Assembly (NCBI GenBank): GCA_965204375.1
Contig: OZ241986.1
Coordinates: 1,632,001 to 1,696,000, forward strand
Direction of reading: 5' to 3'
Origin: Candidatus Latescibacterota bacterium
GTDB taxonomy: Bacteria > Latescibacterota > UBA2968
DNA: 64,000 nucleotides
This document shows, piece by piece, positions 1,766 to 38,970 of this stretch. How positions within the stretch are numbered: the stretch's first letter is position 1; each line of letters starts with the position of its first letter. The notes below the pieces were generated by a model, which saw nothing but the letters and a program-made list of their open reading frames with translations, was not told the origin of the DNA and did not search any database. The position numbers and the translations under genes were made by a program.

Positions 1766-1771
1766 AAAAGA

Positions 1772-1800
1772 AAGGCCTGCAAAAGCGGCCTTCTTTCTTT
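1772..1800 (+). terminator. possible intrinsic terminator
   Basis: AAGGCC...GGCCTT stem followed by CTTTCTTTT. Confidence 0.4.
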
Positions 1801-1802
1801 TT

Positions 1803-2408: not shown

Positions 2409-2499
2409 GGTTAGGCGGATAGCTGACCGCTGTTGACGACATTCTTTTTTCGCTTATATTGCCGCGTATCCATTTACTCATCACCAAGGAGTTATCACA

Positions 2500-2802
2500 A
2501 TGGCTATTGAAGACAAAACCCTGCTGACCGAAGATGAGATTCGCGCAGAGGTTGCTGATCTCGAAGGGTGGAAATATTTGGAAGACACAAAAGAATTGCA
2601 ACGCGTTTGGCATTTTGAGAAATTTGTGCCGACTATGGCTTTTGTACGCAGGCTGACAGAGATTATGGATGAAAATAATCACCATTCGGATATCAGCCTC
2701 AACAGCCGAACAAAAACCCTCACAGTGACGGTGACGACCCACAGCGAAAATGCTGTTACCCGCGCAGATCTCGACTTTGCCGGAGCGGTAAATAGAGGGT
2801 AA
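2500..2802 (+). CDS. pterin-4-alpha-carbinolamine dehydratase family protein
   Basis: 100 aa; GW...LQRVWHF, NHHSDI, TTHS...VT-ADLDFA. Confidence 0.85.
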   Translation: MAIEDKTLLTEDEIRAEVADLEGWKYLEDTKELQRVWHFEKFVPTMAFVRRLTEIMDENNHHSDISLNSRTKTLTVTVTTHSENAVTRADLDFAGAVNRG

Positions 2803-2833
2803 AGTTCAGCAAAACAAGCAATTTGGAGGTGGG

Positions 2834-11408: not shown

Positions 11409-14270
11409 ATGAACCTCGCTGGAATGTTGATGCAAAAAATTGAGGGCGAAGTGCGTTTTGATAAGATGTCGCGCATTCTTTACAGCACTGATGCGAGCAT
11501 GTATCAAATTGAACCCGTTGGCGTTGTTTTGCCCAAACACAAACAAGATGTTTTGCATGTCATCAATCTCGCCAATGAACACGAGGCCCCGATCATTCCC
11601 CGAGGCGGTGGCACCGGGCTTGCCGGCGGTGTGGTGGGAAGCGGTATTGTGATGGATATGTCGAAATATATGAATCGCATTCTCGACTTCAATGCCGAAG
11701 AAGGTTGGGTCAGGGTCGAGCCTGGCGTGATACTCGATGAACTCAATGCATTTCTCAAACCGCACGGATTGCAATTTGCGCCCGATGTGGCAACCAGCAG
11801 CCGTGCGACAATCGGGGGCATGGTGGCCAATAATTCGGCAGGCGCGCATTCGGTTATTTACGGCAAGACTATAGATCACGTATTAGAACTCGATTTGGTC
11901 TTGTCCGATGGCACTGAAATAACAGTAGGGGAGTTAGACGAGCCTGCTGTGCAACAAAAATGCGAGCAACAAAACCTCGAAGGTCAGGCGTATCGGGAGG
12001 TAATCCGCATAGCGCGGGAGAATGCGGAAGAAATCGAGCGACGATATCCCAAAATTTTGCGGCGGGTCGGCGGATACAATCTCGATGAATTTATCAAAAA
12101 GCAGCCGTTCAATCTCGCGCGTATGGTTATAGGTTCTGAGGGTACTTTGGCGACCGTTGTCGGGGCAAAGCTCAGAGTAATTCCGTTGCCCCGGGCAAAG
12201 GTGCTGGGCATTGTTCAATTTAACGACCTGATTGCGTCTATGAAGGCTGTTGCGCCGATCTTAGAAACGGCTCCGGCCGCAGTAGAGCTGATCGATAAGA
12301 TGATTCTGGATCAGACCAAAGGGTCTATGGAACTGTCCAGGATGCGTTCGTGGGTGCAGGGCGATCCAGAGGCTGTGCTCGCTGTTGAATACTACGGAGA
12401 TTCAGCGAGTGCACTGGCCTCTAAGCTGGACGAACTCGAGGTCGTTTTGGGCAATCTAAATCTCGAATATACTTTTTCCCGTGCTATTTCCGATATCGAG
12501 CAGGCCAATGTTTGGAATGTGCGCAAAGCGGGGCTGGGTTTGCTCATGGGGGTAAAAGGGGATTCTAAACCCATCGCTTTTGTCGAAGACGCTGCTGTAC
12601 CGCCAGAGAGGCTACCCGATTATATTTCTGAGTTTGGAGCTTTGGTGAAATCGCTCAACACGCGTGCGGGTTATTATGCACACGCCAGCGTGGGCTTGCT
12701 ACACGTTCGGCCGATGGTCAATCTCAAAGAGGCCGATGAGATCGCAAAAATGCGCTTTATCGCCGAATCCGTGCGCGATCTGGTGATGAAATACGGTGGT
12801 GCCGTAAGTGGAGAACACGGCGATGGCCTGGTTCGGAGTTGCTGGAATGAAACGTTCTTTGGCACGACACTTTACGAGGCTTTTCGGGAGGTCAAACGCG
12901 CTTTTGACCCCAAAGGACTGATGAATCCCGGTAAAATTGTCGATGCGCCGATGATGACCAAAAATTTGCGGTATGGGGCAGACTATCGCGCACAAGAGAT
13001 AAATACCCACTTCGATTTTTCTGCCGATGGGGGATTTCACCGCGCCGTTGAAATGTGCAATGGGGTGGGCGAGTGTCGCAAAAAGCTGGTGGGCACGATG
13101 TGTCCGTCTTATATGGCAACGCTGGAAGAAGAGCATTCGACGCGAGGGCGGGCAAACGCGCTTCGAGCGGCGATTTCAGGGCGGTGGGAAGGCGGGCTTA
13201 CGGATCATCGCATCAACGATGTCCTCGCACTTTGTCTGGAATGTAAGGCATGCAAAGCCGAGTGCCCATCCAATGTGGATATGGCGAAAATTAAGTATGA
13301 ATTTAAGGCGCATTATTACGCCAAACACGGACGACCCTTGCGGTCTATTTTATTTGGCAATGTGGAATTGATGGGCAAACTCGGATGCATCGTCGCACCC
13401 CTTGCCAATCGTCTGTCCAGGACGAGTATTTCAAAGTGGATGATGAAACGTCTCGGGATCGCGCCTGCGCGGTCACTGCCGCCATTTGCACGTCAGACAT
13501 TTACACACTGGTTCGCCAGTCGCAATGCGCCTTCGAAAAATAAACGCGTCGTGTTTTTTGCCGATACGTACATGACCTACAACTATCCCGAAATTGGCAA
13601 GGCAGCGACAGCCTTGTTTGAAGCAGCGGGTTATGAGGTGATTTTGGCCGTAAAGCGATGTTGTGGACGTCCGATGCTTTCGAGTGGTTATATCGATCGC
13701 GTAAAAGAAAACGCCCTGTTTAATATCGAGACTCTCTATCAATATACCGAACAGGGATATCCCATCGTGGGATTTGAACCGTCGTGTGTTTCGATGTTTA
13801 CGGATGAATACGGCGATTTAATTGACGATCCGCGCGTGCGTGCCGTAGCCGACAATATTTACACGTTTGAAGCATTTGTGCAGACGTTTTTCGAACGGGG
13901 CGAATTTTCCGTACCATTTACCGATCTTAAAAAAGACATCTTGCTCCACGGCCACTGCCACCAGAAGGCTCTGTGGGGGATCGGACCGTCTGAGGCTGCG
14001 TTGGGATTGCCCGAAGGCTTTCGCGTGACGCCCATTCAATCGGGTTGCTGTGGCATGGCGGGTTCTTTCGGCTATGAAGCCGAACACTACGATGTGTCGC
14101 TCAAAGTGGGTGAGTCGCGGCTGCTTCAGGTGGTTCGCAACGCAGATGACACAACCGAAATTGCCGCAGCAGGTTTGTCGTGCAGGCAGCAGATTGCACA
14201 CGCCACAGGGCGCACTGCCCGTCATCCCGTCGAGGTATTGGCAGACGCCCTGGATAAGGGCGATGGGTAA
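11409..14270 (+). CDS. FAD-binding and (Fe-S)-binding oxidoreductase (GlcD/GlpC fusion, YdiJ-like)
   Basis: PRGGGTG, SGEHGDG, CNGVGEC, CLECKACKAECP, and CCG motifs. Confidence 0.92.
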   Translation: MNLAGMLMQKIEGEVRFDKMSRILYSTDASMYQIEPVGVVLPKHKQDVLHVINLANEHEAPIIPRGGGTGLAGGVVGSGIVMDMSKYMNRILDFNAEEGWVRVEPGVILDELNAFLKPHGLQFAPDVATSSRATIGGMVANNSAGAHSVIYGKTIDHVLELDLVLSDGTEITVGELDEPAVQQKCEQQNLEGQAYREVIRIARENAEEIERRYPKILRRVGGYNLDEFIKKQPFNLARMVIGSEGTLATVVGAKLRVIPLPRAKVLGIVQFNDLIASMKAVAPILETAPAAVELIDKMILDQTKGSMELSRMRSWVQGDPEAVLAVEYYGDSASALASKLDELEVVLGNLNLEYTFSRAISDIEQANVWNVRKAGLGLLMGVKGDSKPIAFVEDAAVPPERLPDYISEFGALVKSLNTRAGYYAHASVGLLHVRPMVNLKEADEIAKMRFIAESVRDLVMKYGGAVSGEHGDGLVRSCWNETFFGTTLYEAFREVKRAFDPKGLMNPGKIVDAPMMTKNLRYGADYRAQEINTHFDFSADGGFHRAVEMCNGVGECRKKLVGTMCPSYMATLEEEHSTRGRANALRAAISGRWEGGLTDHRINDVLALCLECKACKAECPSNVDMAKIKYEFKAHYYAKHGRPLRSILFGNVELMGKLGCIVAPLANRLSRTSISKWMMKRLGIAPARSLPPFARQTFTHWFASRNAPSKNKRVVFFADTYMTYNYPEIGKAATALFEAAGYEVILAVKRCCGRPMLSSGYIDRVKENALFNIETLYQYTEQGYPIVGFEPSCVSMFTDEYGDLIDDPRVRAVADNIYTFEAFVQTFFERGEFSVPFTDLKKDILLHGHCHQKALWGIGPSEAALGLPEGFRVTPIQSGCCGMAGSFGYEAEHYDVSLKVGESRLLQVVRNADDTTEIAAAGLSCRQQIAHATGRTARHPVEVLADALDKGDG

Positions 14271-14547
14271 TATCAAGCGCGTTCGCGTGATAATCAGCGG
14301 ACGGGTTCAGGGTGTTGGATTCCGCTATGTCACACAGCGAGAAGGCGAGCGCCTCGGGCTGGTCGGATGGGTAAAAAATTTACCCAATGGCGATGTTGAG
14401 GCTGAAGCAGAGGGGGATGAGGCGCAAGTCGCTGAATTTGTAAAATCGATGCGGCGGGGACCTGCTACATCTCGCGTCCTGAGTTGTCAGGTTGACGAGA
14501 TACCTGCGACCCACTGGGATATAGTGTTTGGTATCATGTTTTTTTAG
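14263..14547 (+). CDS. acyP: acylphosphatase
   Basis: SGRVQGVGFR, GWVKNLPNGDVE. Confidence 0.9.
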   Translation: MGNIKRVRVIISGRVQGVGFRYVTQREGERLGLVGWVKNLPNGDVEAEAEGDEAQVAEFVKSMRRGPATSRVLSCQVDEIPATHWDIVFGIMFF

Positions 14548-14568
14548 TGAATTTTAAGGGAGGAAAGA

Positions 14569-15081
14569 GTGGATTTAATGGGCTTTATTCGCGATGTGCC
14601 CGATTTTCCCAAAGCGGGCATTTTGTTTAAAGATATTACGCCTCTGCTCGGCGATGCGGATGCGCTTCGCGCGGCGATAGAACGACTGGCGCAACCCTAT
14701 CGCGATGGGGCTGTCGATCTGGTTGTGGGAATCGAGTCGCGTGGTTTTATTTTTGGGACTGCACTCGCGCGAGAACTCGACGTGGGCTTTGTGCCGATCC
14801 GCAAACCCGGCAAACTGCCAGCAGATGCGATTTCTGCGAAATATGAATTGGAATACGGAACTGATAAGATTGAGATACACACAGACGCAATCGCCAAAGG
14901 ACAAAAAGTCGCGATCGTGGATGATTTGCTGGCGACCGGTGGCACAATGGCTGCTGCGTGTCAGCTCGTATCTGAACTCAAAGGGAAAATTGTCGGTATC
15001 TCTTTTGTCATAGAACTGGGCTTTTTGAACGGGCGCGAAAAACTCGGGGATTGGCCCATTCACAGGCTGGTTCACTATTGA
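14569..15081 (+). CDS. apt: adenine phosphoribosyltransferase
   Basis: PDFPK.GILFKDITP, IRKPGKLP, LEYG, VDDLLATGGT. Confidence 0.96.
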   Translation: MDLMGFIRDVPDFPKAGILFKDITPLLGDADALRAAIERLAQPYRDGAVDLVVGIESRGFIFGTALARELDVGFVPIRKPGKLPADAISAKYELEYGTDKIEIHTDAIAKGQKVAIVDDLLATGGTMAAACQLVSELKGKIVGISFVIELGFLNGREKLGDWPIHRLVHY

Positions 15082-15094
15082 TATTATCATATGT

Positions 15095-15132
15095 GCCCCT
15101 GTAGCTCAGAGGATAGAGTAGCGGATTCCTAA
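15095..15132 (+). tRNA. tRNA-Arg(CCU) 5' exon (positions 1-38)
   Basis: GCCCCTG TA GCTC AGAGGATA GAGT A GCGGA TTCCTAA: acceptor 5' strand, D arm with A20, anticodon CCT. Confidence 0.93.
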
Positions 15133-17576
15133 GTGCGCCGCTTCACGGTAGGAGTTCCTACCCAGTAACTGGGTATGAGTTGCAGGATAACTCGTAGATT
15201 AACCGATTCACTGAAATCTGAAAGGAGGAAGGGAAAACAGCATATCGGTAAAGCTGGTGGACAGGACAACCACAAAGAATGTCGCACTGGCAAAATCTGT
15301 ATCCTATGATTAAGGCTAAACTGCTTGAACCTCAACAACCAGTGGGAGAAAACCCGCCTCCTCTTGGAAATGTGGTTGACACCAAGACCTCACAAGATTC
15401 TGAAAGGATTAGGAGTTCAGAATACCTGACAACGTGGGCACGACTTGCAGAGAGCGAGTATAAGGTAGTGAATGAGGAATCTAAGGGATACTAAACGGAA
15501 CTCAGACACGGAAAGCGGGAATACCTAAGTGTCGAGAGACATAAGGTATCGGAGCCTCCGTAGTAGTCAGAGAACGGGAAAGCCGTTTACAAGGCGAAGG
15601 GAGGCAGGTAAGTTCGACTGTAAGGACAAGGAGGGATGCGTAATGCAAACAGCCAAAACTGTTCTTGAGGTCATCCATCGAAGGGGAATGGAAGGTAAAA
15701 CGCTTGAAAGGCTTTACAGGCAATTGTTCAACGAAGAGATATACCTGAAAGCGTATGCGGAAATCTACTCAAACAAGGGTGGATTAACCAGAGGTATTAG
15801 TAAAGAAACGATTGATGCAATGTCAGTTAAACGTATTCATAGCATCATAAAACGTCTCCGAACTGAAACATACCGATGGAAACCAACACGCCGAGAGTAT
15901 ATCCCAAAAAAGGACGGCAAAAAGAGACCACTTGGAATCCTCTCTGGGGACGACAAGATACTCCAAGCTGTTCTTAAAACCCTGCTTGAAGCCTATTATG
16001 AACCGCAATTCAGTGACCGCAGTCACGGATATAGACCGAATAGAGGCTGCCACACAGCACTTCAACAAATTGGTAGAAAACACCATACGGTCAGTTGGTT
16101 CATAGAGGCAGATATAAGAGGCTGCTTTGATAACATCGACCACGACATCTTAATTGATATACTGAGCGATAAAATCAAAGACGGAAGGTTTATACGACTT
16201 CTCAAACATCTTATGAAAGCAGGATATGTTGAAGATTGGAAATGGCATAAGACATATAGCGGAACACCGCAAGGTGGCATCATAAGCCCGCTTCTGTCAA
16301 ACATCTACCTGAACGAATTAGATATATGGGCAGAGAAAGAACTTATGCCAGAATACAATCGTAAGCCAAAAAGCGGTAGGAAGAAAATGAACCCTGAATA
16401 TAAGCGATATGCCTATAAAAGAGGCAACGCCAAAAAGCAGGGCGACTGGAAATCCTACAAACATTACGGAAATCTGATGAAATCACTTCCAACAACGATA
16501 GAAGATGATAACTACCGAAAATTGGAATATATCAGATACGCCGATGACTTTCTGTTAAGTTTCGCTGGCCCTAAAAAGGAAGCTAACGAAATCAAAGAGA
16601 AGATCAGGAATTTTCTCAAGGATAGATTAAGACTTGACCTATCATTGGAAAAAATCCTAATCACTCACGCCAGAACCAAAAAAGCCAAATTCCTGGGATA
16701 CGATCTGCGAGTCAGACAATCACGGGAAAGGCGAGTAGCAAATGGATCAATATGGTTCGGGACACCAACAGAGAGCAAGTTGAGAGCCATAAAGAAATAT
16801 AGGGAGAAAAACAAGGCGAAAGTAAGATTTGAACTGGTCGAACTGAGTGACTATGATATAGTAACGCAGTATCAATCAGAATACAGAGGTCTTGCGAACT
16901 TCTACGTAATGGCTCACAACAGACATACCTTAAACAAAGTAAGGTGGGAAGCGGAAAAATCCCTAATACGGACACTTGCAAGAAAGCACCGAACATCGGT
17001 CAAAAAAACCTATATAAAATATAGGGGCAAGATGAACGGTCATGCGGTGATAAAGGTGCAAGTAGAAAGAGAAGGGAAAGACCCACTAACCACATACTTT
17101 GGAGGAATTTCCCTGAAGAGAAACCCATACGTAAAGTCTATAAAAGACGAGTACACGAACAATTGGATCAAAAGAAGTCAGCTTATAGAGAGACTACTGG
17201 TAGACCAATGTGAAATGTGCGGACAAGTGGGGAATATCGAAGTCCATCACGTAAGAAAGCTAAAAGATGTGAACATACCGGGAAAGAGGAACAAACCCGC
17301 TTGGGTGCATCGAATGGCAGCTATCAGACGTAAAACTCTGATGACCTGCGTAAAATGTCATAAGGCAATACACGCAGGTAAACACCTTACGGAATGGGAT
17401 GTATGGAAGAACTTACTGGAGAGCCGTGTGCATTGAAAGGTGCAAGCACGGTTCGGAGGGAGGGTGCAGGAAAAGTGACCTAAATCCGTTTTGGTTTGAC
17501 TACGATGGAGCTAATATAGCTCTCTAGTGGACAACCAAAACGGCATTAGGTCAAACTCGCTTGCTCCCTACCCTAC
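15133..17576 (+). mobile_element. group IIA intron (Ll.LtrB-like) inserted in tRNA-Arg(CCU)
   Basis: 5' GTGCG at 15133; domain V GAGCCGTGTGCATTGAAAGGTGCAAGCACGGTTC at 17421-17454; bulged A17570 at position -7; 3' end CCCTAC at 17576; removing it restores a full cloverleaf. Confidence 0.93.
15643..17436 (+). CDS. ltrA: group II intron-encoded protein (RT, maturase X domain, HNH endonuclease)
   Basis: LYRQLFN...AY..IYSNKG, RPLGI, SHGYRPNRGCHTA, WFIEADIRGCFDNIDH, GTPQGGIISP, YIRYADD, CEMCG..IEVHH..CVKCH..IH; ATG after GGAGG. Confidence 0.95.
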   Translation: MQTAKTVLEVIHRRGMEGKTLERLYRQLFNEEIYLKAYAEIYSNKGGLTRGISKETIDAMSVKRIHSIIKRLRTETYRWKPTRREYIPKKDGKKRPLGILSGDDKILQAVLKTLLEAYYEPQFSDRSHGYRPNRGCHTALQQIGRKHHTVSWFIEADIRGCFDNIDHDILIDILSDKIKDGRFIRLLKHLMKAGYVEDWKWHKTYSGTPQGGIISPLLSNIYLNELDIWAEKELMPEYNRKPKSGRKKMNPEYKRYAYKRGNAKKQGDWKSYKHYGNLMKSLPTTIEDDNYRKLEYIRYADDFLLSFAGPKKEANEIKEKIRNFLKDRLRLDLSLEKILITHARTKKAKFLGYDLRVRQSRERRVANGSIWFGTPTESKLRAIKKYREKNKAKVRFELVELSDYDIVTQYQSEYRGLANFYVMAHNRHTLNKVRWEAEKSLIRTLARKHRTSVKKTYIKYRGKMNGHAVIKVQVEREGKDPLTTYFGGISLKRNPYVKSIKDEYTNNWIKRSQLIERLLVDQCEMCGQVGNIEVHHVRKLKDVNIPGKRNKPAWVHRMAAIRRKTLMTCVKCHKAIHAGKHLTEWDVWKNLLESRVH

Positions 17577-17611
17577 TCCGTTGGTCGCAGGTTCGAGTCC
17601 TGCCAGGGGCA
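17577..17611 (+). tRNA. tRNA-Arg(CCU) 3' exon (positions 39-73; CCA not encoded)
   Basis: TCCGT TGGTC GCAGG TTCGAGT CCTGC CAGGGGC A: pairs with the anticodon and acceptor stems of exon 1. Confidence 0.93.
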
Positions 17612-17615
17612 CTTT

Positions 17616-19001
17616 GAGGTATATTCAAAAGTTGTGGATGAGTAAAAGAAAAGAGCGTATCCTATAGTATCACAAAAACCTAAAATCCCTCCAGGAGGGA
17701 GAAAGGACACGCTCGTGAAAGAATATACCCCATTTGAAGTGGAAAGCATAGTGCAAGATACACTGGCCGAGAGCCTCGAAGAAGTCATAAGAAATGGTGC
17801 GCGTAAGATGTTATGTGCCGCCTTGCGGTATGAAGTGAATGAATACATAGCCCGATTTGCTGATCAGGTGGATGAAAAGGGTCATCGTGAGGTGGTCAAA
17901 AATGGGTATCATCCTGCCCGAGAAGTCACCACTGGTATTGGTAAAATACCCGTCAAACAACCCCGCGTTCACGATCGTCGAGACGGGGAGCACTTCACCA
18001 GTGCGATCCTGCCTAAATATGCCCGTCGCAGTCCGAGCATTGATACATTGATCCCCACACTGTATCTGAAAGGGGTCTCTACCTCAGCCTTTCCCCAGGC
18101 ACTCGAAGCGATCCTCGGCAAAGGCGCACCAGGGCTTTCACCAGCCAATATCACGCGCTTAAAGCGTATTTGGGAAGACGAGTATAAACAATGGCAAAAG
18201 CGCGACTTGCACGATAAAGCCTATGTCTATATCTGGGCAGACGGTATCTATTTTAACGTACGCCTGTCTGATGATCGCCCCTGTGTTCTCGTGCTCATTG
18301 GTGCCACAGCAGAAGGTAAAAAGGAAGTCCTTGCCATAGAGCAGGGACAGCGTGAGAGCACCTTATCTTGGAAAACCCTCTTACTGGATGTCAAAGCACG
18401 CGGGTTGCGCCTTGCCCCTGCTCTTGCCATAGGCGATGGGGCAATGGGCTTCTGGCACGCATTGGAAGAGACATTCCCTGCCACGAAACATCAGCGCTGC
18501 TGAGTGCATAAGAGTGCTAATGTGTTGGATAAGCTACCCAAATCTGTGCAGCCGGATGCCAAGAGACTCCTTCAAGATATGTATCAGTCGCCGACAAAAG
18601 AGGCCGCGCACAAGGTCTATGACCACTTCTTGAGTCTGTATCAGGATCGCTATGAAAAAGCCTGTGACTGCCTCACCAAAGATTTTGAGGTGCTCTTCAC
18701 CTTTTATGATTTTCCTGCCAAACACTGGATCCATTTACGCACCACCAACCCGATTGAATCGACTTTTGCTACCGTCAGGCATCGCACGAGGCAGACAAAA
18801 GGCTGCGGATCGGTCAAAGCCACAATGGCGATGGTGTATAAACTGGCTCTTGAAGCTGAAAAAACATGGGTCAGATTACGCGGTTACAAGCTCATACCCC
18901 TCGTCATTGACGGGGTGAAATTCGTAGATGGTGAACGCAAAATCGCTGCATAATCATAAAGGATGCGTTCTAAACCCATCCACAACATTTGACAATATCT
19001 C
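17616..19001 (+). mobile_element. IS256-family insertion sequence with 9-bp target duplication
   Basis: Left end GAGGTATATTCAAAAGTTGTGGATGAGT versus reverse complement of right end GAGATATTGTCAAATGTTGTGGATGGGT; GGGCACTTT at 17607-17615 and 19002-19010. Confidence 0.92.
17715..18953 (+). pseudogene. IS256 transposase with one in-frame TGA (18501-18503)
   Basis: NGY..R...TGIG, LYLKGVST, IWADG, IGDG, QRC*VHK (normally QRCWVHK), RTTNPIES; both parts are in the same frame. Confidence 0.9.
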
Positions 19002-19050
19002 GGGCACTTTTTAAAAACACAGACCCTTTAAAACTGCTATGGATTGACCG

Positions 19051-19242
19051 ATGAAACGCGTTCTGACCATATCCAAATTTGATCCAAATGAGAAAGCATG
19101 CGATCATACGCGACATCTCACAGGTGATGAACGGGTATCCCTCCTTGAGCAACTACGCCGAGAAATGTCTAAGGTAAGCCATCGTGAATATCCAAAAAGA
19201 CTTCGAAGAGTTCTTACAGTTGCTAAACGCAACAGGGGTTGA
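19051..19242 (+). CDS. small basic protein, putative partner of the nucleotidyltransferase
   Basis: 63 aa with ERVSLLEQLR...KRLRRVL; overlaps the next ORF. Confidence 0.65.
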   Translation: MKRVLTISKFDPNEKACDHTRHLTGDERVSLLEQLRREMSKVSHREYPKRLRRVLTVAKRNRG

Positions 19243-19639
19243 ATTTGTCATTGTTGGTGGCTATGCTGTTGCTTTTCATGGCTATGTACGCACCACTGAC
19301 GATATGGATTTGTTCTTCCGCAATACCCCTGAGAATATCGCAAGAATCCGCCAGGCCCTCCAAAAATTTGGTCTTTCTACAACCGAACAGCAGGCCGCTG
19401 AATTTGCCGTTCCAGAAAATATCATCCGCATGGGAATTGCCCCGGTGCGAATTGAAATGATGAATAGCATAAGTGGGCTTACATTTGATGAGGTGTGGCA
19501 AAACAGGGTCTCGGGAATCTACGGAGAAACCCCTGTCTTTTACATCTCCCGGTCAAACCTTCTTCACAATAAACGGGAATCCGCTCGCCCTAAGGATATT
19601 GCAGATGTGGACGAATTGGGCGGTAATAGAAACACTTAA
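19184..19639 (+). CDS. minimal nucleotidyltransferase (DUF6036/AbiEii-like fold)
   Basis: VIVGGYAV..HG..R.T.D.D and NK...RPKD..D. Confidence 0.85.
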   Translation: MNIQKDFEEFLQLLNATGVEFVIVGGYAVAFHGYVRTTDDMDLFFRNTPENIARIRQALQKFGLSTTEQQAAEFAVPENIIRMGIAPVRIEMMNSISGLTFDEVWQNRVSGIYGETPVFYISRSNLLHNKRESARPKDIADVDELGGNRNT

Positions 19640-20290
19640 TCACTTTTCAAGCTTATGACCTTTTGTTTTGCCTCTGCAAGAGCGTAGCCTCGTTCTACAT
19701 CATCTCTTGCTCTATTTGGCTTTTTTGCTCCTCCAGGTCGATAATTTTTTGACTGACAGCTTTGATATCAACCTTGCGCCCATTTAACGCCAGAAGTCAA
19801 AGAACATGCCGCAAAAAAATTGAGAGAGTGGTTTGAGTGATCAACCTCCGCATTGAGTGCGGCTAAAACCATCACAAAAAAGTTTGTGCAAAGCAATTTC
19901 GCAATCTATTATGGTATTGGAAGAACCGATCCTCATAACTTCAAAGAAAGGAGCAACACAGGCTACCTCGTGCATTATGGGAGCCGGTCTTTCTGTTTGT
20001 ACTGGCCTCCTCCGTTACCGCTTGGTCTGGATAGTTGGAAAAGAGGACTTCAATATATCTGCCCATCCTCGGACAAAGCTCTGACCGAGCTGTAACTGAT
20101 AGACTATGGACGTAAAATCGGATTGAGAATAGCCAGCGAATTGGTCATAAGCGGAGAACCGTTGCAAAAACACCTGAGCTTAGAAAATGCGATTGGCCTG
20201 AAAAATTGCGTGATTGTGTCGGACAACCTCTAACGCCTCGTCCTATGCTCGAGTACAGCAAAAATCTGGACCAACAGAAAGGAGAATGGA

Positions 20291-20665
20291 GTGAAAATAA
20301 TACTTGCTATTTCGCTGATGTGCTTGGTTGGGTGTGCCTGTACACGGCCCGACCAGAACGCCACAAATGCGGCGCATTATGGCGGATACGTAAGCCAGGA
20401 GACAGGGGAACGCCTGGCAAAAGCGTACTTCAGAGAAATACTCAAAGACCCGTATTCCGCGCAGTATCGGTTTGACCGGATTACAAGAGGCTGGATTCAA
20501 GACGCGCCCATTGATGGCTGCAAAACCCATTATGGTTATCTTCTCAGAGTAGGTGTCAACGCAAAGAACAGCTATGGCGGGTACACAGGAGAAAAACCTT
20601 ACGCATTCATTATCCGAGATGGGGGGATCGTCAAAGTCTCTTACCCGCCGCCCGCCCGATACTGA
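20291..20665 (+). CDS. hypothetical lipoprotein
   Basis: Lipobox LVGC; LKDPYSA and VNAKNSYGGYTG; AAGGAG RBS. Confidence 0.8.
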   Translation: MKIILAISLMCLVGCACTRPDQNATNAAHYGGYVSQETGERLAKAYFREILKDPYSAQYRFDRITRGWIQDAPIDGCKTHYGYLLRVGVNAKNSYGGYTGEKPYAFIIRDGGIVKVSYPPPARY

Positions 20666-21061
20666 TTCTAAGATGCTTTGAACCTACTTTAGGAGCGATA
20701 AATCCCTGTTAAATCACAGCAACACACACAACAGCCCGGTCGTTTTTTTGTATTCACAGCCCTCTCGATAGCCCTCTTTTCGAGTTCTCAGGCCCGATAT
20801 TGGCACTTTTTTGGCGCAAACATACTCCCAAAAAGGCACTAAAAAATAGATTTCTAGCCGCAATAAGACACTCTTTTATAAAAAATTTGGCTCAGATATC
20901 AGGCACGACACTACCAAACGGCGACAAAAATAGAGCAGCTAATGCTCGCCTCGAGTACAATACAAAAGTCCGGGTAATTTTGTGTGGACTTGACCTGTTT
21001 TAGTGGACAACTTATCTCTTTCAGAGAAAGGAGTCCAAAAGACGAAAGGATTTGTGTAACG

Positions 21062-24000
21062 ATGACAAAGTTTCAACCTTTAGGCCAGGTTCAATCTACT
21101 GCCGACACAAGTCAGATCGGCACGATTATCAAAGCTCTTCCTAAACATGCGGGTATGCAATATTATGAGGTGGATTATGGTGGGGGGCCGCGTGTTATAG
21201 TAGCTGAGAGCAACTTGAGACCTTATACGAATTTACAGAAGCCAAGCGAGTATCTGCTGGCTGGACTAATGGGAGGGTATCAGGAATTTCAAAGGCTTAT
21301 GACACATCGGCGGTTGCTTCGAGAACATACTTTAAGAAACAATATTTATGCTTTTAATGCGTCCAGAACCCAGTTTTTTCCTTACCAGTTCAAACCGCTT
21401 CTCAAACTTTTGGATTCTACACGTCATCGGCTACTCATTGCAGATGAAGTTGGACTGGGTAAGACAATAGAAGCTGGATTGATTCTAACCGAATTGATGG
21501 CTCGGCAGCATTTGCAGCGGGTACTGGTAGTCTGTCCATCCAATTTGATAGGCAAGTGGCGGTTAGAACTCAGGAACAGGTTTGGTGAAGATTTTGAGAT
21601 TGTGAAGTCTACCAGATTTCTGGATTTTCTCGAAGATTATGAAGACCGGCCTGAACATACCCGTATAAAAGGGATTATATCGCTAGAAAGCATCCGTAGA
21701 AACGCTGTTCTGGACCGCTTGGATGAGCTTGCGCCAGATTTTGACTTGGTAATTGTAGATGAAGCACACCACCTGCGAAATTTTTCCACTAAGCAGCGTC
21801 AGGCAGGTGTCCTACTCGGACAGGGTGCAGGCACGATGTTGATGTTAACGGCAACGCCTATACATTTGGGTAATGAAAATCTTTTTAGCCTTTTGAATAT
21901 TCTTGATGAAGAAGATTTCCCCGATATGTACACGGTTGACAGACGATTCCGAAACAATGAACCTATTGTTAGTGCCCAGATTTGTGTCGGACAGGTACCA
22001 CCAAACACCGAAAAAGCTCTTGAGCTTTTGGAAGGCATTCGCTATGCACCGGAAATTACTGAAAATCCACTCTACTCCGAAGTAATCTCTAGTCTGAAAG
22101 ACCTTAAAAGTAGAGATCACCCTGAATCCGAGCAGATGAGGATCCTATTGGAAATACAGAGGGATCTTTCTGAGCTAAACCTGATTGGTCATATCTTTAC
22201 GCGCACTCGAAAGCGGGAAGTACAGGAGCATGTAGCAGAGCGACAGGCTTTTCCTTTACAACTCCAGTTTACGGAAGTTGAACAGCAGTTCTACCGCGCG
22301 GTTACTGCATATGTAAGAGAGGAGAGTAAACGCAGGACGGATTCTCCTATTATTCGGCAGTGGATTCTCAACACACCTCAGCGCAGGGTCGCTTCTTCAA
22401 TTCCAGCGATGGTCAGACATTATCAGAATCATCTGGGACTTGATCGGGAAGACTTGTCGGAAGATCTTGACACATCAAGCATGGAAGGCGTATCAAGCCA
22501 GGCCGGAGCACTTGAAGTAGCTCGGCAACATCTTCAGCAAATCGTAGCAGACTGGCCTGTGGATGGACCTGACTCGAAATACGAGAAATTTATCGAAATT
22601 CTCAGGCAGCTCAAAAGCCAAGAAGGCAACATCAAAGTTGTTGTTTTCGCCTTTTTCAAAGCGACTCTGAATTATCTTCTGGAAAGGCTAAGAAAAGATG
22701 GTATCTGTGCGGTTTTGATCAGCGGAGATGTAGATGCGGATGAAAGGCCAGGTATTATTGAAAGATTTCGAACAGATCCTGAGATAGAAGTGTTGCTGTC
22801 TTCCCGGGTAGGCAGTGAAGGGCTTGATTTTCAGTTTTCTAATACACTTTTTAATTATGATCTGCCCTGGAACCCCATGGAGGTTGAGCAGAGAATCGGC
22901 CGTCTAGATCGTATCGGCCAGGAGTCGAGAATCATTCGGATCTACAACTTTTCGATTGAAGGCACAATTGAACAACGGATATTGGATCGCCTTTACGAAC
23001 GATTAGATATTTTCAGACGGTCTATTGGCGAACTGGAGGCCATTCTGGGTGATAAGCTTCAAGACCTAGAACGAGATTTCCTTGTGCAAGATTTGAGTCC
23101 TGAAGAAGAAGAAAGGCGTATCGTCGAAACTACCAGGGTCATTGAACAAAGGCTGAAGGATCTGGAACAACTCGAAAATGAAACTGCACAGTTTCTGGGC
23201 GTTGATCAGTATTTTGAGGAAGAAGTGCAGAAAATCAGGGATTGCAGACGGTATATCACTGGTGAACAGTTGAGACGGTTTTATGTGGACTTCATCAAGC
23301 ATACTTGTCCGAGAACGAAGCTGGAATACGATATAGACACCAACACGGGCAAGCTGTATCCTGACGAAAAGCTTCGAAATTTTATTACGCATCAACAAGC
23401 GTCGGGAGATATTATAGAATATTTGAATCGGTCAGGGCGCGGCATTTCGATTACATTCGATTCTCAGACGGCTTTCAATCATCCTAATCTAGATTTCATC
23501 AATATTCTGCATCCACTTACTCAGGCTATATCCCGCTATTACGGTCAAAATTCAGATCAATTGTCTAACGCCCATCATGTCGTTTTGGATACACAGAGCC
23601 TTCAGCCAGGCTTTTACTATTACAGTATATTTTTTGTTCGAACGTTGGGAGCACGTAGTGCCAATACGTTGGAAATGGTTATCTTAAACGACCAGATCAA
23701 AGAGGCTTGTTCACAGATGGATGCGGAGGTTGTCCTTGGAGAAATGGTTGAGAAAGGTGAAGACCCGGTTGGTGCTGGTCTTGAAATAGATCCACAATGG
23801 ATTCAAGAAGCAGGTAGTTACGCAGATACAATATTCTTGGAGCGAGTTGGTGCAATCCGTGATGCTTTGGAGCGAAGTAACGACTCATTTGTAGATCGGA
23901 GGCTAGTCAGCTTGCGTAGCTTTTACAACAAAAGAATCGATAAACAGCGTGATCTTCTACGAAGGGGTGAAACTGCACAACGGCAGGAGCGATATTTGCG

Positions 24001-24133
24001 GATGCTTCGTGGGACACTAACACGACTGGAGAGCGAATTAAAAAGTAAAGAAGATGAATTGGAGCAAAGGAGAAAGGTGGGGGTTGATCATGAAGGCATT
24101 GCTGCAGGAATTCTTGAAGTTTCTGAAAGGTAA
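21062..24133 (+). CDS. SNF2-family (RapA/HepA-like) helicase
   Basis: IADEVGLGKT, VDEAHH, LTATP, VGSEGLDFQ, NYDLPWNP..EQRIGRLDRIGQ; C-terminal coiled coil. Confidence 0.93.
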   Translation: MTKFQPLGQVQSTADTSQIGTIIKALPKHAGMQYYEVDYGGGPRVIVAESNLRPYTNLQKPSEYLLAGLMGGYQEFQRLMTHRRLLREHTLRNNIYAFNASRTQFFPYQFKPLLKLLDSTRHRLLIADEVGLGKTIEAGLILTELMARQHLQRVLVVCPSNLIGKWRLELRNRFGEDFEIVKSTRFLDFLEDYEDRPEHTRIKGIISLESIRRNAVLDRLDELAPDFDLVIVDEAHHLRNFSTKQRQAGVLLGQGAGTMLMLTATPIHLGNENLFSLLNILDEEDFPDMYTVDRRFRNNEPIVSAQICVGQVPPNTEKALELLEGIRYAPEITENPLYSEVISSLKDLKSRDHPESEQMRILLEIQRDLSELNLIGHIFTRTRKREVQEHVAERQAFPLQLQFTEVEQQFYRAVTAYVREESKRRTDSPIIRQWILNTPQRRVASSIPAMVRHYQNHLGLDREDLSEDLDTSSMEGVSSQAGALEVARQHLQQIVADWPVDGPDSKYEKFIEILRQLKSQEGNIKVVVFAFFKATLNYLLERLRKDGICAVLISGDVDADERPGIIERFRTDPEIEVLLSSRVGSEGLDFQFSNTLFNYDLPWNPMEVEQRIGRLDRIGQESRIIRIYNFSIEGTIEQRILDRLYERLDIFRRSIGELEAILGDKLQDLERDFLVQDLSPEEEERRIVETTRVIEQRLKDLEQLENETAQFLGVDQYFEEEVQKIRDCRRYITGEQLRRFYVDFIKHTCPRTKLEYDIDTNTGKLYPDEKLRNFITHQQASGDIIEYLNRSGRGISITFDSQTAFNHPNLDFINILHPLTQAISRYYGQNSDQLSNAHHVVLDTQSLQPGFYYYSIFFVRTLGARSANTLEMVILNDQIKEACSQMDAEVVLGEMVEKGEDPVGAGLEIDPQWIQEAGSYADTIFLERVGAIRDALERSNDSFVDRRLVSLRSFYNKRIDKQRDLLRRGETAQRQERYLRMLRGTLTRLESELKSKEDELEQRRKVGVDHEGIAAGILEVSER

Positions 24134-25721
24134 ACGAGAAGAACCTCAAGAAACTTCTGGTAGAAAATTTTCTCAGAACAGTGTCTCTAAGTCTGTGCAG
24201 AGACACGCAAGGGATGAAGTAGATCAGATTACCCAAAAACCGATTAAGCAAGCAGAGGCGAAAAAACAAAGACTATCTGGACCGGTTCGGCGGCGGGTTG
24301 AAAAGATACAGATACAGGTAGGATTGGATTTTGGCACCAGCAGCACAAAAATCGCGTATGCGCCGATCAGCGGTGTTGGACAGCGTCCAGTCCGTCCACT
24401 GATATTCGATCACAATTTGAAAACATATGAGACTTTCTGTCTGCCGTCGCTCGCTGCTTTTGATCGAAATCGTAAGTTACTTTTAGGTATTGAAGCAGCA
24501 AAATTACTGGAAAATGAGCCTTGGGATTCCGGATTAAGACGGCTCAAAGTTGTTGTGGCAGGAAAATATGAGCAGTCTTTTGTCGATCCCAATACGAAAA
24601 CGGCTTTTGACAAGTATTTGGAGCAGCATGATATAAAAACAAAAACCCATTCACCAGAATTGATCACTTCGGTTTACTTGGCCTATGCGATGCGTCAGGC
24701 CCGACTTGCCATACAGAATGTGCCGGACTTTCGCAACCACGAGCTTGATCTGCTTTTTAATGTTTGTGTTCCTATTGATCACCTGGAAAAAAGACGTGTG
24801 CTGCTCGCTTTTCATAATATCCTTGCCTGGGCCGAGGCTATCGAAGAAGCTTGGAATCAGTCAAATGGTTCATTTGATCCACTTGAATTTGCACGCAAGG
24901 TCAAGAAGAATGTTGAATATCGCCCGGCAGATCGATACGGTCTAAGTCGGCAAGATAGTGAAAGGCGAGTTTTTGCTGTCCCGGAAGCAGTTGCAGAAGC
25001 AGCTTCATACTTGACTTCCTTACAGAGACAGGAGGGTGTTCACGCTATTATTGATTTGGGTGCAGGGACCACGGATGTCTCTTTTTTTAATCTCAGACCT
25101 GAAAACGGAGGTCTCAAACCGTTCTGGTATTCAGCAGGAAATATTCCTGAAGGAGGATATAAAGTTGAGCGTGTTATTGCTGATCATCTAATAGCGAAAA
25201 AAGGCGGTTGTAGCTCTGGTGATATTCTCGAAGTTCTTCAAGTGCTCGATAGAAGTCGCCAAGGAAGCAAACTTTATAGTGATGACATCAGACACAAAGT
25301 CAGAAAAACTCTGGAAGGTATTCATTTAAAAGCTACAGATGTCTGGCGAGCAGCTTACAGGGACAAACTGAAGAGGCAATCTTTATGGGAAGATGTGCAG
25401 GTCTTTATTTCAGGGGGAATCGCTAACATACCTTCTGTTAAGAGCGTTTTTTCGGCACCTTGGATGCAGCAATTAAAAAATATCAGATACCCTGTTCACT
25501 ATCTCCCAACCCCCGAAGATTACGACTCAGCGAATGGAGAGGTACCTTTTCGACGGATGGCTGTTGCCTATGGTTTATCGCGTCCTGCTCCAGAACTCGG
25601 AGAGTTTATATTGCCAGCAGACTGTCCCAATCATACACCAGATCCTCTACCCATTAAAACACACGAAGGTAATCGAGATGGTAGTGGCCTTAGACCTAAT
25701 TCGGATTGGCTCGGAAGGTGA
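24090..25721 (+). CDS. actin/Hsp70-superfamily ATPase-fold protein
   Basis: VGLDFGTSSTK (phosphate 1), VPEAVA, IIDLGAGTTDVS (phosphate 2), ISGGIANIP (adenosine), VAYGL. Confidence 0.8.
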   Translation: MKALLQEFLKFLKGKREEPQETSGRKFSQNSVSKSVQRHARDEVDQITQKPIKQAEAKKQRLSGPVRRRVEKIQIQVGLDFGTSSTKIAYAPISGVGQRPVRPLIFDHNLKTYETFCLPSLAAFDRNRKLLLGIEAAKLLENEPWDSGLRRLKVVVAGKYEQSFVDPNTKTAFDKYLEQHDIKTKTHSPELITSVYLAYAMRQARLAIQNVPDFRNHELDLLFNVCVPIDHLEKRRVLLAFHNILAWAEAIEEAWNQSNGSFDPLEFARKVKKNVEYRPADRYGLSRQDSERRVFAVPEAVAEAASYLTSLQRQEGVHAIIDLGAGTTDVSFFNLRPENGGLKPFWYSAGNIPEGGYKVERVIADHLIAKKGGCSSGDILEVLQVLDRSRQGSKLYSDDIRHKVRKTLEGIHLKATDVWRAAYRDKLKRQSLWEDVQVFISGGIANIPSVKSVFSAPWMQQLKNIRYPVHYLPTPEDYDSANGEVPFRRMAVAYGLSRPAPELGEFILPADCPNHTPDPLPIKTHEGNRDGSGLRPNSDWLGR

Positions 25722-25786
25722 GATGGATTTCTGGATGGGAGGAAATCCTAACACAAAACAGGTGTTTCAACTCTTAATAGCGTGAC

Positions 25787-26077
25787 TTGCTCGGTGTTGC
25801 CAGCGCTTCGGAGAAATCACCTGGGCGTTGGGATCTCGGGCTTCCTCCAGCCCGGTATGGCACTTTTGTTCTGTTATGTGAAGATACAAAAGGCGAAATC
25901 CATACGTTCATTGCATCCAGAGATTTTACACAGAAATTCATAGACAAACTCAGCCGTGACTATAACGGCCAGATCAAATTAAACGTTAAAAAAACCGGCT
26001 CCAAATTTTACCTAACCATACCGGGAAGTCCCGATGAGTCGATTGTAAATCTGAAGGATCAATTTGAGAATATCTAA
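25787..26077 (+). CDS. hypothetical protein (start uncertain, possibly frameshifted from ATG 25723)
   Basis: Open frame directly after the ATPase gene; no good RBS at the TTG. Confidence 0.4.
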   Translation: MLGVASASEKSPGRWDLGLPPARYGTFVLLCEDTKGEIHTFIASRDFTQKFIDKLSRDYNGQIKLNVKKTGSKFYLTIPGSPDESIVNLKDQFENI

Positions 26078-26088
26078 GGAGTCAGAAA

Positions 26089-27141
26089 ATGGAACAGGAA
26101 TTTCAGGAGCGTGTCGTAAGGATAGAGCCTCCGAAACGTCACTTCGTATTTCTGATTGCACCTGACGGTTCTATGCTCGGCCTTGATGAAAGTAGCGAAC
26201 TCGCCTTGCACGACGAAGCCGACGATCGTGTGATCTGGGATCGCACACCAGAAGGCATAAAGCACGTGGCAACCGGTAAAGATGTATCCACCGATATCGA
26301 TGAGGATGTCTGCACATTGTCTGTCGGTTCAGACGAGATGACCTTCACCACCTATCACGGCCCTGAAAAATTGCCGTCTGAATATCTCGAACACTTAAAG
26401 CGCGAAGGGTGGGTCTGTCTGACCTGTATTCTGCCACCAGACATTTTAGAAGATATGGAACGCGTCGCCGGTACAGATCGTTACGAACACTTGGAAATGA
26501 ACACCGACATGCCCAGGATCTGTCAGAGTGTCTCTGTTGCCAGAGCATCCATTGAGCCCATCTCCATTTGGTTGGCCAGGCGGTATATGGGAGCCCACGA
26601 TTTACACCTCTCGCATCCACCCGGTTTTAGAATCGAGTACCCGGATGATGGCAAAAGAAAACTGGGCGGTTGGCACTCTGATTTTCCCTATTCGGCGTCA
26701 ACCGGTGGCAATGAGCCTCCCGACAGAAAGGGACCCATTAAGGCCATGCAACGTAATGTCTGTGTGTCTGACTTTACCAAGATTCGCGGTGCAACAGCAT
26801 TTAAACTGGGCTCACATCTATCAGACACACCCCCACCACCAGAATGGAACGACACACAAGCGAGTCGCTTTCCCTATCACGGCCCTGAAGCCGATGTGAT
26901 AGAAGCGCCCGGTGGTAGCGTCATCCTCTACGATGCCAGGGTGTGGCATCGAGCAGGCATCAACCGCAGCCAGCAGAAAAGAGCTGCAATGCTACAATCG
27001 TTCCAAGCACCAGATGTTCTGCCCAAAAACGACACCACAGCCACGTATGAACGCCTCGTGGAGAGTCCCATTTTCAATGAACTAAATGATAGAGAACAGA
27101 AGGATATAACAGCACTGCTGACCAATACAGTGGAAAAATGA
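26089..27141 (+). CDS. PhyH-family Fe(II)/2-oxoglutarate dioxygenase with N-terminal extension
   Basis: LKREGW, GWHSD, GSH, PGGSVILYDARVWHRAG.N....R. Confidence 0.85.
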   Translation: MEQEFQERVVRIEPPKRHFVFLIAPDGSMLGLDESSELALHDEADDRVIWDRTPEGIKHVATGKDVSTDIDEDVCTLSVGSDEMTFTTYHGPEKLPSEYLEHLKREGWVCLTCILPPDILEDMERVAGTDRYEHLEMNTDMPRICQSVSVARASIEPISIWLARRYMGAHDLHLSHPPGFRIEYPDDGKRKLGGWHSDFPYSASTGGNEPPDRKGPIKAMQRNVCVSDFTKIRGATAFKLGSHLSDTPPPPEWNDTQASRFPYHGPEADVIEAPGGSVILYDARVWHRAGINRSQQKRAAMLQSFQAPDVLPKNDTTATYERLVESPIFNELNDREQKDITALLTNTVEK

Positions 27142-36686: not shown

Positions 36687-36833
36687 ATGAGTAAAATTGG
36701 AAAAGCTATTATTTTGGTCATGCTGGTCATGTACCTTCGGGGAGAAAGCACATGGAACTCCTGGATGTACCGGGCGTCAGTACCCTACATTAACAATTGT
36801 GGGGTACTGACATGGCTGCGCGAAAAGACATAA
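36687..36833 (+). CDS. putative 48-aa peptide with hydrophobic N-terminus
   Basis: AGGAGG RBS; MSKIGKAIILVMLVMYLRGESTWNSWMYRASVPYINNCGVLTWLREKT. Confidence 0.4.
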   Translation: MSKIGKAIILVMLVMYLRGESTWNSWMYRASVPYINNCGVLTWLREKT

Positions 36834-36946
36834 GTACTCATTTTTCGGTTGTCTCTGTCACCCAAGTATTGTACATTCGCAGGGACAACACCGACGCGAT
36901 GGCGTGTAATTTTGACCGAGAGGTGGTTTGTTATGGTGGGAAAAAA

Positions 36947-38410: not shown

Positions 38411-38970
38411 GTCACCTCAACAAGTACTGGGAGACTATTAAACTCGCAGGCAAGTCCATTAAAAACTGCTATGCGTACTGTATGGATGGCGAACCTCCTT
38501 GTCCCAATGATATGAGAAAAGATGTAGGTTTAGGCACATGCAGTTGTGCCGATTACTTCAGCCCCCAAAGCAATTCTATTCTCATCATTGAAGAAGGCCA
38601 GATCGCAGCAAGCGTTGATAGCTATAAAAATGACTACGAATTTTGTAATAGTACTGACCAGACAAAGTACGCCGAGAAACAACTTCTAAAAGAATTTCAG
38701 CTTAAAGCCTATGGATCATTGATTGTGTTGTGCCGTTTATCCGCAATCTGCGAAAGCGTGAGAGATTTGTTAAAAAACAAAAAGTATGAATATTGGGTTA
38801 TTGTAAGCGACAAAAAATACAATGTGCAATTTTTGGAACATCTCACAAGCAATCTAAAAAGCACTCTATCAAAGCAAATCGTAAAAAGTGTCAAAGTGAT
38901 ATTCCGAGATGATTTTGAGGAAGAATTCCGCAAGGGGGAGAGTTTAAAAATAACTGATTGTAATAACTGA
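38407..38970 (+). CDS. hypothetical protein, possible degenerate PD-(D/E)XK fold
   Basis: ATGA overlap with the ATPase; CADY...ILIIEE...LKAYGS. Confidence 0.7.
   Translation: MSHLNKYWETIKLAGKSIKNCYAYCMDGEPPCPNDMRKDVGLGTCSCADYFSPQSNSILIIEEGQIAASVDSYKNDYEFCNSTDQTKYAEKQLLKEFQLKAYGSLIVLCRLSAICESVRDLLKNKKYEYWVIVSDKKYNVQFLEHLTSNLKSTLSKQIVKSVKVIFRDDFEEEFRKGESLKITDCNN

Follow-up and report, generated by a model that had tools for sequence, protein, structure and literature searches.

A conserved pair of overlapping genes for a RapA/DrmD-clade SNF2 helicase and an Hsp70-like ATPase as a candidate defence module

The DNA analysed here, called the window throughout, is a stretch of 64,000 nucleotides (nt) from a Candidatus Latescibacterota bacterium (contig OZ241986.1 of assembly GCA_965204375.1, positions 1,632,001 to 1,696,000 of the forward strand). 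An earlier note, made from the letters alone, had singled out two overlapping genes in it, for an SNF2 helicase and an actin/Hsp70-fold ATPase, which together with a small open reading frame (ORF) behind them were read as a two- or three-gene conflict system. The helicase ORF runs from 20984 to 24133; translation from the ATG at 21062, which is preceded by a gaaagga stretch, gives the 1023 amino acids (aa) that had been counted then. The ATPase ORF runs from 24054 to 25721, and its start was assigned to the ATG at 24090 because the alignment of 38 family members, the length of the relatives and a purine-rich stretch just ahead of this codon point there; the resulting 543 aa are the length of most members in the two nearest ATPase clusters. 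The features of the pair and of its surroundings are collected in Table 1.

Table 1. Features of the gene pair, followed by neighbouring elements (AF2, AlphaFold2; NBD, nucleotide-binding domain; pLDDT, predicted local distance difference test)
Feature	Coordinates	Strand	Evidence or remarks
SNF2 helicase/translocase, RapA/DrmD clade, 1023 aa	21062..24133	+	Pfam, PADLOC, NCBIfam, AF2, Foldseek
N-terminal small beta-barrel (Tudor-like), residues 1-58	21062..21235	+	modelled as five strands (E9-54); alignable to the N-terminus of RapA
SNF2 ATPase core, lobes 1 and 2	21419..23011	+	two RecA-like lobes; secondary structure of the model
C-terminal alpha/beta domain (~730-900), long helical hairpin (911-1002), terminal strand (1007-1020)	23249..24121	+	model
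Purine-rich stretch resembling a Shine-Dalgarno sequence, within the helicase gene and before ATG 24090	24066..24082	+	read from sequence
44-nt dual-coding overlap	24090..24133	+	helicase ...IAAGILEVSER (stop) and, one base out of frame, ATPase N-terminus MKALLQEFLKFLKG
Hsp70-NBD-like (actin-fold) ATPase, undescribed family, 543 aa	24090..25721	+	profile search, AF2, Foldseek
Basic disordered linker, residues 26-75 (P0002 numbering)	24129..24278	+	pLDDT below 50
NBD core	24303..25613	+	invariant columns; alignment to Hsc70 residues 7-18, K71 and 197-214
Phosphate-1 motif QVGLDFGTSSTK	24315-24350	+	
Phosphate-2 motif IIDLGAGTTDVS	25047-25082	+	
Adenosine motif GG, residues 454-455		+	
Conserved proline-rich C-terminal tail, LPxDxPxHTPxPLP ... 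W	25611..25718	+	alignment; no regular structure in the model
Group II intron	15529-17576		reverse transcriptase/maturase/HNH ORF 15529-17436; Rfam Intron_gpII 17419-17576, 60.5 bits
IS256-family transposase (Transposase_mut) in two adjoining ORFs	17715-18503 and 18504-18953		Pfam
DUF6036/DUF2204 nucleotidyltransferase, 151 aa	19184-19639		weak AbiEii similarity; no obvious partner gene identified
Lipoprotein, 124 aa, lipobox signal	20291-20665		396 nt upstream of the helicase; phage relatives, phrog_2320 4.5e-22

The product of the first gene has the Pfam domains SNF2-rel_dom (2e-20) and Helicase_C (1.4e-21), with a match to ResIII as well, and its closest PDB chains by sequence are those of RapA (1.7e-44), in line with the RapA-like SNF2 protein that the earlier note had described. 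The PADLOC model for DrmD of class 1 DISARM, PDLC02623, covers residues 32-997 at 1e-175, essentially a full-length match, and NCBIfam likewise ranks DISARM DrmD first, with 357 bits against a cut-off of 610. Lower scores are obtained for RapA (also known as HepA; PRK04914, 248.7 bits versus 576), DpdE (239 versus 500) and DrmD_b (170 versus 950), and the helicase stays below every NCBIfam equivalog cut-off. Its clade is that of DrmD, BrxHII and DpdE. The AF2 model (mean pLDDT 81.9, predicted TM-score [pTM] 0.77) has the whole-chain architecture of RapA, from the N-terminal barrel to the C-terminal domain. Foldseek aligns it with RapA, to which it has 21% identity, at 1.7e-37 over 1061 columns for chain 6bog_A, and best with 8t0l_F (TM 0.57/0.60), in which RapA is bound to the post-termination complex of RNA polymerase; remodelers other than RapA align with the motor core only, at ~1e-18.

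Walker A/motif I (DEVGLGKT, residues 128-135), motif II (DEAH, 233-236) and motif VI (QRIGRLDRIGQ, 610-620) are invariant among 34 partner helicases. Corresponding to the Tudor-like barrel at the N-terminus, a Tudor domain is reported for RapA-like defence helicases in PMC12839542. At the other end of the chain, the orthologue from a Methanosarcinaceae archaeon gives a RapA_C match. A nuclease in the C-terminal alpha/beta domain was considered and dropped: the invariant columns of this region in the 34 helicases contain no acidic-acidic-lysine triad of the PD-(D/E)xK type. In RapA-like defence helicases, according to the same source, the corresponding domain is a restriction-endonuclease fold that is inactive (PMC12839542, 2026).

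The second gene encodes a protein whose family lies below every Pfam threshold. Pfam HSP70 gives the window ATPase 16.2 bits, under the cut-off of 20.6, and the weak matches across the 38 members are to FtsA (17/38), HSP70 (8/38, E<=0.01) and MreB-like_C (6/38); no solved structure matches the family profile at better than E 0.004. In an exhaustive search clustered at 50% identity, 131 clusters reach E<=1e-30 and 331 reach E<=1e-10, and the 151 relatives from a word-indexed search are all unnamed or 'hypothetical'. PHROGs has no family for it. With the AF2 model (pLDDT 83.2, pTM 0.80), the top PDB matches listed by Foldseek are all Hsp70-family chains (DnaK, BiP, Hsc70), the best at 5.2e-14, and Hsp70 chains consisting of the NBD only align with TM 0.55-0.59 (normalised to those chains) and 14-17% identity. 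Neither actin, Arp, ParM nor MreB occurs among these listed top matches, and in a viral structure library the matches are limited to viral Hsp70 homologues.

The actin-fold motifs that the earlier note had picked out, phosphate-1, phosphate-2 and adenosine, are indeed invariant in the 38 members and align with Hsc70. The invariant residues are G90, D92, G94, K99, K165, E311, D334, G336, G338, T340, G454 and G455, with E311 belonging to a PEA motif. In HMMER alignments to Hsc70, VGlDFGtsstK corresponds to residues 7-17, a conserved lysine to K71 and viDlGaGtTDvS to residues 197-208, and D92, K165, D334 and T339 of the ATPase align with D10, K71, D199 and T204, which we take to be the catalytic residues of Hsc70. 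On this alignment, the usual Hsp70 catalytic set is retained. The parts outside the NBD are of a different kind. At the N-terminus a short helix precedes a linker modelled as disordered, and this linker, the basic region pointed out earlier, has 59 aa here with 16 K/R versus 8 D/E; across the family it averages 58 aa (range 2-201 aa) with a mean net charge of +5. Hsp70 chaperones share the fold of the NBD and its catalytic residues with this protein but not its ending: the chain stops ~35 aa past the NBD, and the substrate-binding domain (SBD) and lid are absent, as had been said of a DnaK-type SBD. Among 12 longer relatives scanned, six carry WD40 repeats ahead of the NBD (P0166, P0168, P0171, P0180, P0209 and P0122). 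Another relative of the ATPase, P0150, has a weak Top1-type zinc ribbon. A search among longer ATPase-domain proteins (973-2775 aa) turned up no natural fusions, which counts as weak evidence.

The earlier note had proposed looking for co-occurrence of the two genes elsewhere, and it is readily found. A scan of species-representative genomes for relatives of the ATPase yielded 37 loci, with full-length relatives at five of them: L001 (Methanosarcinaceae archaeon), L002 (Deltaproteobacteria), L003 (Aminivibrio), L004 (Victivallales) and L007 (Arenicellales). At all five, an SNF2 gene encoding 1024-1044 aa lies immediately upstream on the same strand, and each of these partner helicases matches PDLC02623 (1e-160 to 1.9e-279). 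Local hidden Markov models add a sixth, more distant pair at L030 (Verrucomicrobia; ATPase 1.6e-19, SNF2 672 bits), where the SNF2 gene ends one base ahead of the ATPase ORF. SNF2 is thus directly upstream at 6/6 loci with a family member, and 0/31 of the other loci have any SNF2 match among ORFs of at least 150 aa. The family is also present in Nitrospirota, Nitromaritima and Ignavibacteria records, and its spread over bacteria and archaea is patchy. Two side observations concern the same scan. At L030 (1066-8780), an extra SNF2-like gene (1066-3897; 177 bits against the helicase profile) precedes the pair. The 31 other loci (L005-L037 except L007 and L030), many from Rhodanobacteraceae/Lysobacterales, encode another ASKHA protein of ~245-690 aa, which scores 14-33 bits against the family and has the phosphate-2 region alone in common with it.

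To gauge co-inheritance more widely, matches to the two proteins were paired by the size of the longest contig. With 120 matches listed for each protein, at least 29 ATPase matches share this exact size with an SNF2 match, a lower bound given that 76 of the 120 ATPase matches lie on contigs of at least 4.7 kb and that the SNF2 list holds the best 120 of 3524; offsets of 1-7 bases, used as a control, give 0-2 matches. Co-divergence was then measured in 34 pairs, namely the window, the 29 contig-matched pairs and L002, L003, L004 and L007. Distances among the helicases track those among the ATPases with a Mantel r of 0.94, which 0/2000 permutations reach. The two trees have 18 of 31 splits in common, and 16 of the 17 well-supported ATPase splits are found in the SNF2 tree, versus a mean of 0.27 and a maximum of 4 with shuffled labels. 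Taken domain by domain, the correlation with the ATPase is alike for all helicase segments (0.80-0.91), so that no interface is singled out. Within 5 kb, blastp at 1e-3 finds no third gene common to the six loci.

The overlap of the two genes, exactly the 44 nt stated in the earlier note, codes in both frames. The terminal strand of the helicase, ...YD(D/E)IAAGILEV, becomes M(M)KLLQEFWK when read one base out of frame, which is the conserved N-terminal peptide of the ATPase family, and an identical 44-nt overlap is present at L001 (5173-5216). The termini of 30 contig-matched pairs were examined for whether a single stretch of DNA can specify both. In 24 pairs they are compatible with an overlap of 35-56 nt, always in one relative frame, versus 8/288 mismatched pairings. 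The six pairs that are not compatible have differing ATPase N-termini, partly still amphipathic, and L002, L003, L004 and L007 have short intergenic gaps and no overlap. As a family trait on the count of compatible pairs, the overlap argues for coupled translation, and translational linkage of the two genes via a conserved out-of-frame overlap is well supported at the level of sequence. The N-terminal helix of the ATPase is amphipathic (median hydrophobic moment 0.75 versus a background 95th percentile of 0.66) and was considered as a membrane anchor or docking helix; the idea was downgraded on two grounds: the conserved helicase terminal strand, read out of frame, yields this very peptide, and the N-termini of several members lacking the overlap are unrelated. 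Overprinting may be the origin of the ATPase N-terminus, and conservation of its helix may be largely a by-product of that. That the two genes constitute a conserved, co-inherited and translationally linked module is well supported.

The small ORF behind the pair does exist as a reading frame, a doubtful gene (25787-26077; 96 aa from a TTG start, with no methionine), and it stops 11 nt ahead of a PhyH gene at 26089. The frameshift suspected in it was not demonstrated. It has no family match in Pfam, PADLOC, NCBIfam or PHROGs, in the Atlas it scores 1999 for recognition, short of 2300, and has unnamed clusters only, and no counterpart stands beside the pair at the five other loci. We rejected it as a third gene of the module on these grounds, that it has no family and no counterpart at other loci. 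Of the two- or three-gene system first proposed, the conserved pair therefore stands, the third gene falls away, and the role in defence is a matter of context, to which we now turn.

The setting in the window is not the tRNA island that had been supposed, as ARAGORN finds 0 tRNA genes in the whole 64 kb and the sole Rfam match in 14000-27000 is the group II intron. The pair lies instead in an insert of lower guanine-plus-cytosine (GC) content, 0.445 for the pair and 0.450 for 15100-26080, against 0.504 and 0.508 in the flanks. This insert also holds the group II intron, a split IS256 element whose transposase is probably disrupted, the nucleotidyltransferase gene and the lipoprotein gene; the last does not adjoin the pair in the other loci examined. 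No convincing direct repeats were found flanking the insert, and matches resembling promoters and terminators are fewer than in shuffled sequence (7 vs 11.4 and 6 vs 8.1, respectively). Low GC, the intron and split IS256 beside it and the spread across domains indicate that the pair is most likely horizontally mobile. The remaining window is ordinary Gram-negative chromosome, with Lpt genes, RpoN, CTP synthase, UvrD and sulfatases. A second pocket of low GC (about 0.40) at 36797-38970 encodes a 537-aa AAA_15/AAA_21 ATPase (PADLOC HEC-02A 3.5e-28, AriA 1.3e-26, also PD-T4-4_A) followed by an overlapping 187-aa ORF that has no family, and may be another small defence system.

Known defence genes lie within 8 kb of the pair at all five loci covered by the PADLOC scan (L001-L004 and L007; L030 was outside it). 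Directly upstream on the same strand are a GmrSD-like gene (HEC-05 model) at L001, 62 nt away, a split HmaC at L002 (179 nt), a mad2-like methyltransferase at L003 (81 nt) and a type I HsdR at L004 (55 nt). L003 additionally has a second DrmD/BrxHII-like SNF2 gene and a type IIG restriction-methylase within 8 kb, and L007 a CBASS cyclase and E2 within that distance. Among the related loci, HmaC occurs only at L002 and the type IIG methylase only at L003.

A closer look at named systems shows what the pair shares with them and where it departs. DISARM is defined by drmA (helicase), drmB (DUF1998), drmC (phospholipase D) and drmMI (N6-adenine methylase). No drmA, drmB or drmC is present in the window (PADLOC on 16 + 3 + 33 ORFs; Pfam), nor does the insert or the rest of the window contain drmMI or any other methyltransferase (Pfam, PADLOC). 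DISARM is, moreover, without an Hsp70-like component, unlike the pair. From Zorya type I, ZorD models match the helicase core only (2.1e-26; 40 bits vs 1500 in NCBIfam), and PADLOC finds no ZorA, ZorB or ZorC in the window, as the earlier note had stated for the partners of both systems. The same program finds in the window no PglX-type methyltransferase, PglZ/BrxC, HmaB/HmaC or YprA helicase and none of the partners of the ietHAS, ARMADA and BREX/Hma helicases. Its scan of 52 ORFs reveals no partner of the Drm, Zor, Brx/Pgl or Dpd kind, and the known systems that use helicases of this type are absent from the window.

RapA/DrmD-like SNF2 motors have been reused repeatedly according to published work, in DISARM, BREX type 3 (BrxHII), BREX-related systems (Hma), ARMADA (ArmA) and ietHAS (IetH), and in the last a DrmD-like SNF2 protein was recruited to the unrelated ietAS, with Walker A and DEAH needed for protection (PMC13069673). 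The partners given there for IetH, ArmA, BrxHII and Hma helicases are a protease plus an ATPase, a methyltransferase plus a YprA helicase, or PglX/PglZ, and none of those described is Hsp70-like. A parallel to the second protein is CnuD of type III CoCoNuT, an Hsp70-like NBD/SBD protein in a defence system (PMC11090510), which resembles what is proposed for the ATPase in the recruitment of an Hsp70-type ATPase domain. As described there, CnuD keeps the SBD, has degenerate catalytic motifs and works with McrBC-type GTPase partners, whereas the ATPase here is without an SBD, has invariant catalytic residues and is partnered by an SNF2 helicase.

One entry in the existing catalogues has a bearing on the ATPase. 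The PADLOC model for component B of the candidate PDC-M61 matches 38/38 members, weakly and partially (best 3.2e-17), and the window ATPase at 2.3e-8 over residues 308-375 (68 residues). The ATPase is a distant relative of this component of an unvalidated candidate, and the pair is therefore not wholly outside existing catalogues. Component A is not among the best 25 of the 48 PADLOC matches of the helicase, and PDC-M61 appears in the literature searched as a label in one preprint only. Full-text literature searches gave no description or name for a pair of SNF2 with an Hsp70-like or actin-fold protein. The claim that this is no named system thus holds for published names, with the qualification that PADLOC's DrmD model recognises the helicase and that the ATPase distantly resembles PDC-M61B.

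The clade of the helicase, the neighbourhoods, the patchy spread across domains and the island setting lead us to think that the pair is, with somewhat more probability than doubt, an unnamed defence module. As a whole, the picture that explains the data best, and which we lean towards rather than assert, is a self-contained mobile two-gene operon whose products would form a single complex with anti-phage or anti-plasmid activity. Gene 1 would supply a translocase of double-stranded DNA, an SNF2 protein of the RapA/DrmD clade whose ATPase site is intact, and gene 2 a divergent Hsp70-type NBD that keeps its catalytic residues, lacks an SBD and is framed by a basic disordered linker at the N-terminus and a proline-rich tail. 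Helicase and ATPase would then act together against phage or plasmid. The Hsp70-like ATPase may serve as a nucleotide-gated sensor or regulator, with variable N-terminal modules that are WD40 propellers in some relatives, and the SNF2 motor as the effector, which would track along foreign DNA and, in the manner of RapA, strip or stall complexes of protein and DNA, RNA polymerase among them. Stripping or stalling is preferred to DNA cutting because neither protein has a recognisable nuclease.

Several points weigh against a role in defence. The count of defence genes near all five loci stands without a background rate, and the copy of the pair in the window adjoins mobile elements and the gene for a phage-type lipoprotein but no known defence gene. 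A tblastn comparison with 72,556 plasmid records and 50,697 phage records gives no match to the family, which limits the evidence for mobility on those vehicles. Nuclease, toxin and methylase domains are unrecognised in both proteins (Pfam, PADLOC, NCBIfam, invariant columns), and an effector step is therefore missing. A full-length RapA fold is equally compatible with a role in transcription, and the support for defence is computational throughout.

Three other explanations were weighed. The pair could be an accessory motor cassette that plugs into an adjacent restriction or modification system, as DrmD does in DISARM and BrxHII in BREX, with the copy in the window an orphan. Four of the five loci (L001-L004) have a gene connected with restriction or defence immediately upstream in the same orientation, and in the sources consulted related helicases always act within multi-gene systems. 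However, the upstream genes all differ, the six loci have no third gene in common within 5 kb, the window and L007 are without such a neighbour directly upstream, and the tight co-divergence is confined to the two genes; we therefore judge the cassette rather unlikely. If the helicase were a RapA paralogue specialised for transcription (for example for recycling or rescue of RNA polymerase under stress) and not for immunity, with the Hsp70-like protein as its own cofactor, this would account for the alignment of more than 1000 columns with RapA, best with RapA on the post-termination complex (TM 0.57/0.60), for the 249 bits against NCBIfam RapA and for the lack of a nuclease or methylase. Against this, the score is under the 576-bit equivalog cut-off while DrmD scores higher, the distribution is patchy across domains, the insert around the pair is low in GC and contains mobile elements, and defence genes are nearby at all five loci. 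We regard a transcriptional function for the pair as unlikely. To our knowledge, RapA itself is a solitary housekeeping gene that has no overlapping actin-fold partner.

Actin-fold ATPases segregate plasmids, and the pair might instead be cargo that serves a mobile element in partition, maintenance or anti-defence, with the ATPase acting like ParM. The group II intron, the IS256 remnant, the AbiEii-like nucleotidyltransferase and the phage-type lipoprotein adjoining the pair fit such a role, but the plasmid and phage collections hold no match, PHROGs is without a family for the ATPase, the listed top PDB matches are all of the Hsp70 family with none to ParM or MreB, and at the other five loci the GC of the pair is in line with that of its surroundings. 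This makes a cargo function very improbable.

SNF2 motors that work with actin/Arp subunits are familiar from the eukaryotic remodelers INO80, SWR1 and BAF, and the PDB titles returned by Foldseek for the helicase include remodeler motor and actin/Arp modules. The likeness has limits: the partner in those complexes is actin or Arp, whereas the ATPase here is closest to the Hsp70 NBD, and the pair shows no demonstrated HSA-type docking helix. The most far-reaching form of the defence reading would make the pair a prokaryotic SNF2 motor obligately joined to an actin-superfamily subunit, a counterpart of the eukaryotic remodelers that, free of any nuclease, would defend the cell by acting mechanically on invading DNA, where polymerases and nucleoprotein complexes would be cleared or stalled, with the Hsp70-like subunit as an ATP-gated sensor bearing an exchangeable N-terminal module (a peptide or a WD40 propeller). 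We offer this as a speculation that is distinctly doubtful.

If the pair protects against phages or plasmids, it would represent a defence type made of two ATPases with no obvious nuclease, and would provide a function for an actin/Hsp70-fold family of at least 131 clusters at 50% identity. It would also mean that the PADLOC DrmD model covers non-DISARM helicases, a point of some weight for automated annotation. Dual coding has a clean natural instance in the overlap, where both frames give recognisable peptides, and this raises the question of whether helicase and ATPase are co-translated stoichiometrically. Finally, the association of an SNF2 motor and an actin-fold protein makes eukaryotic remodelers an obvious object of comparison.

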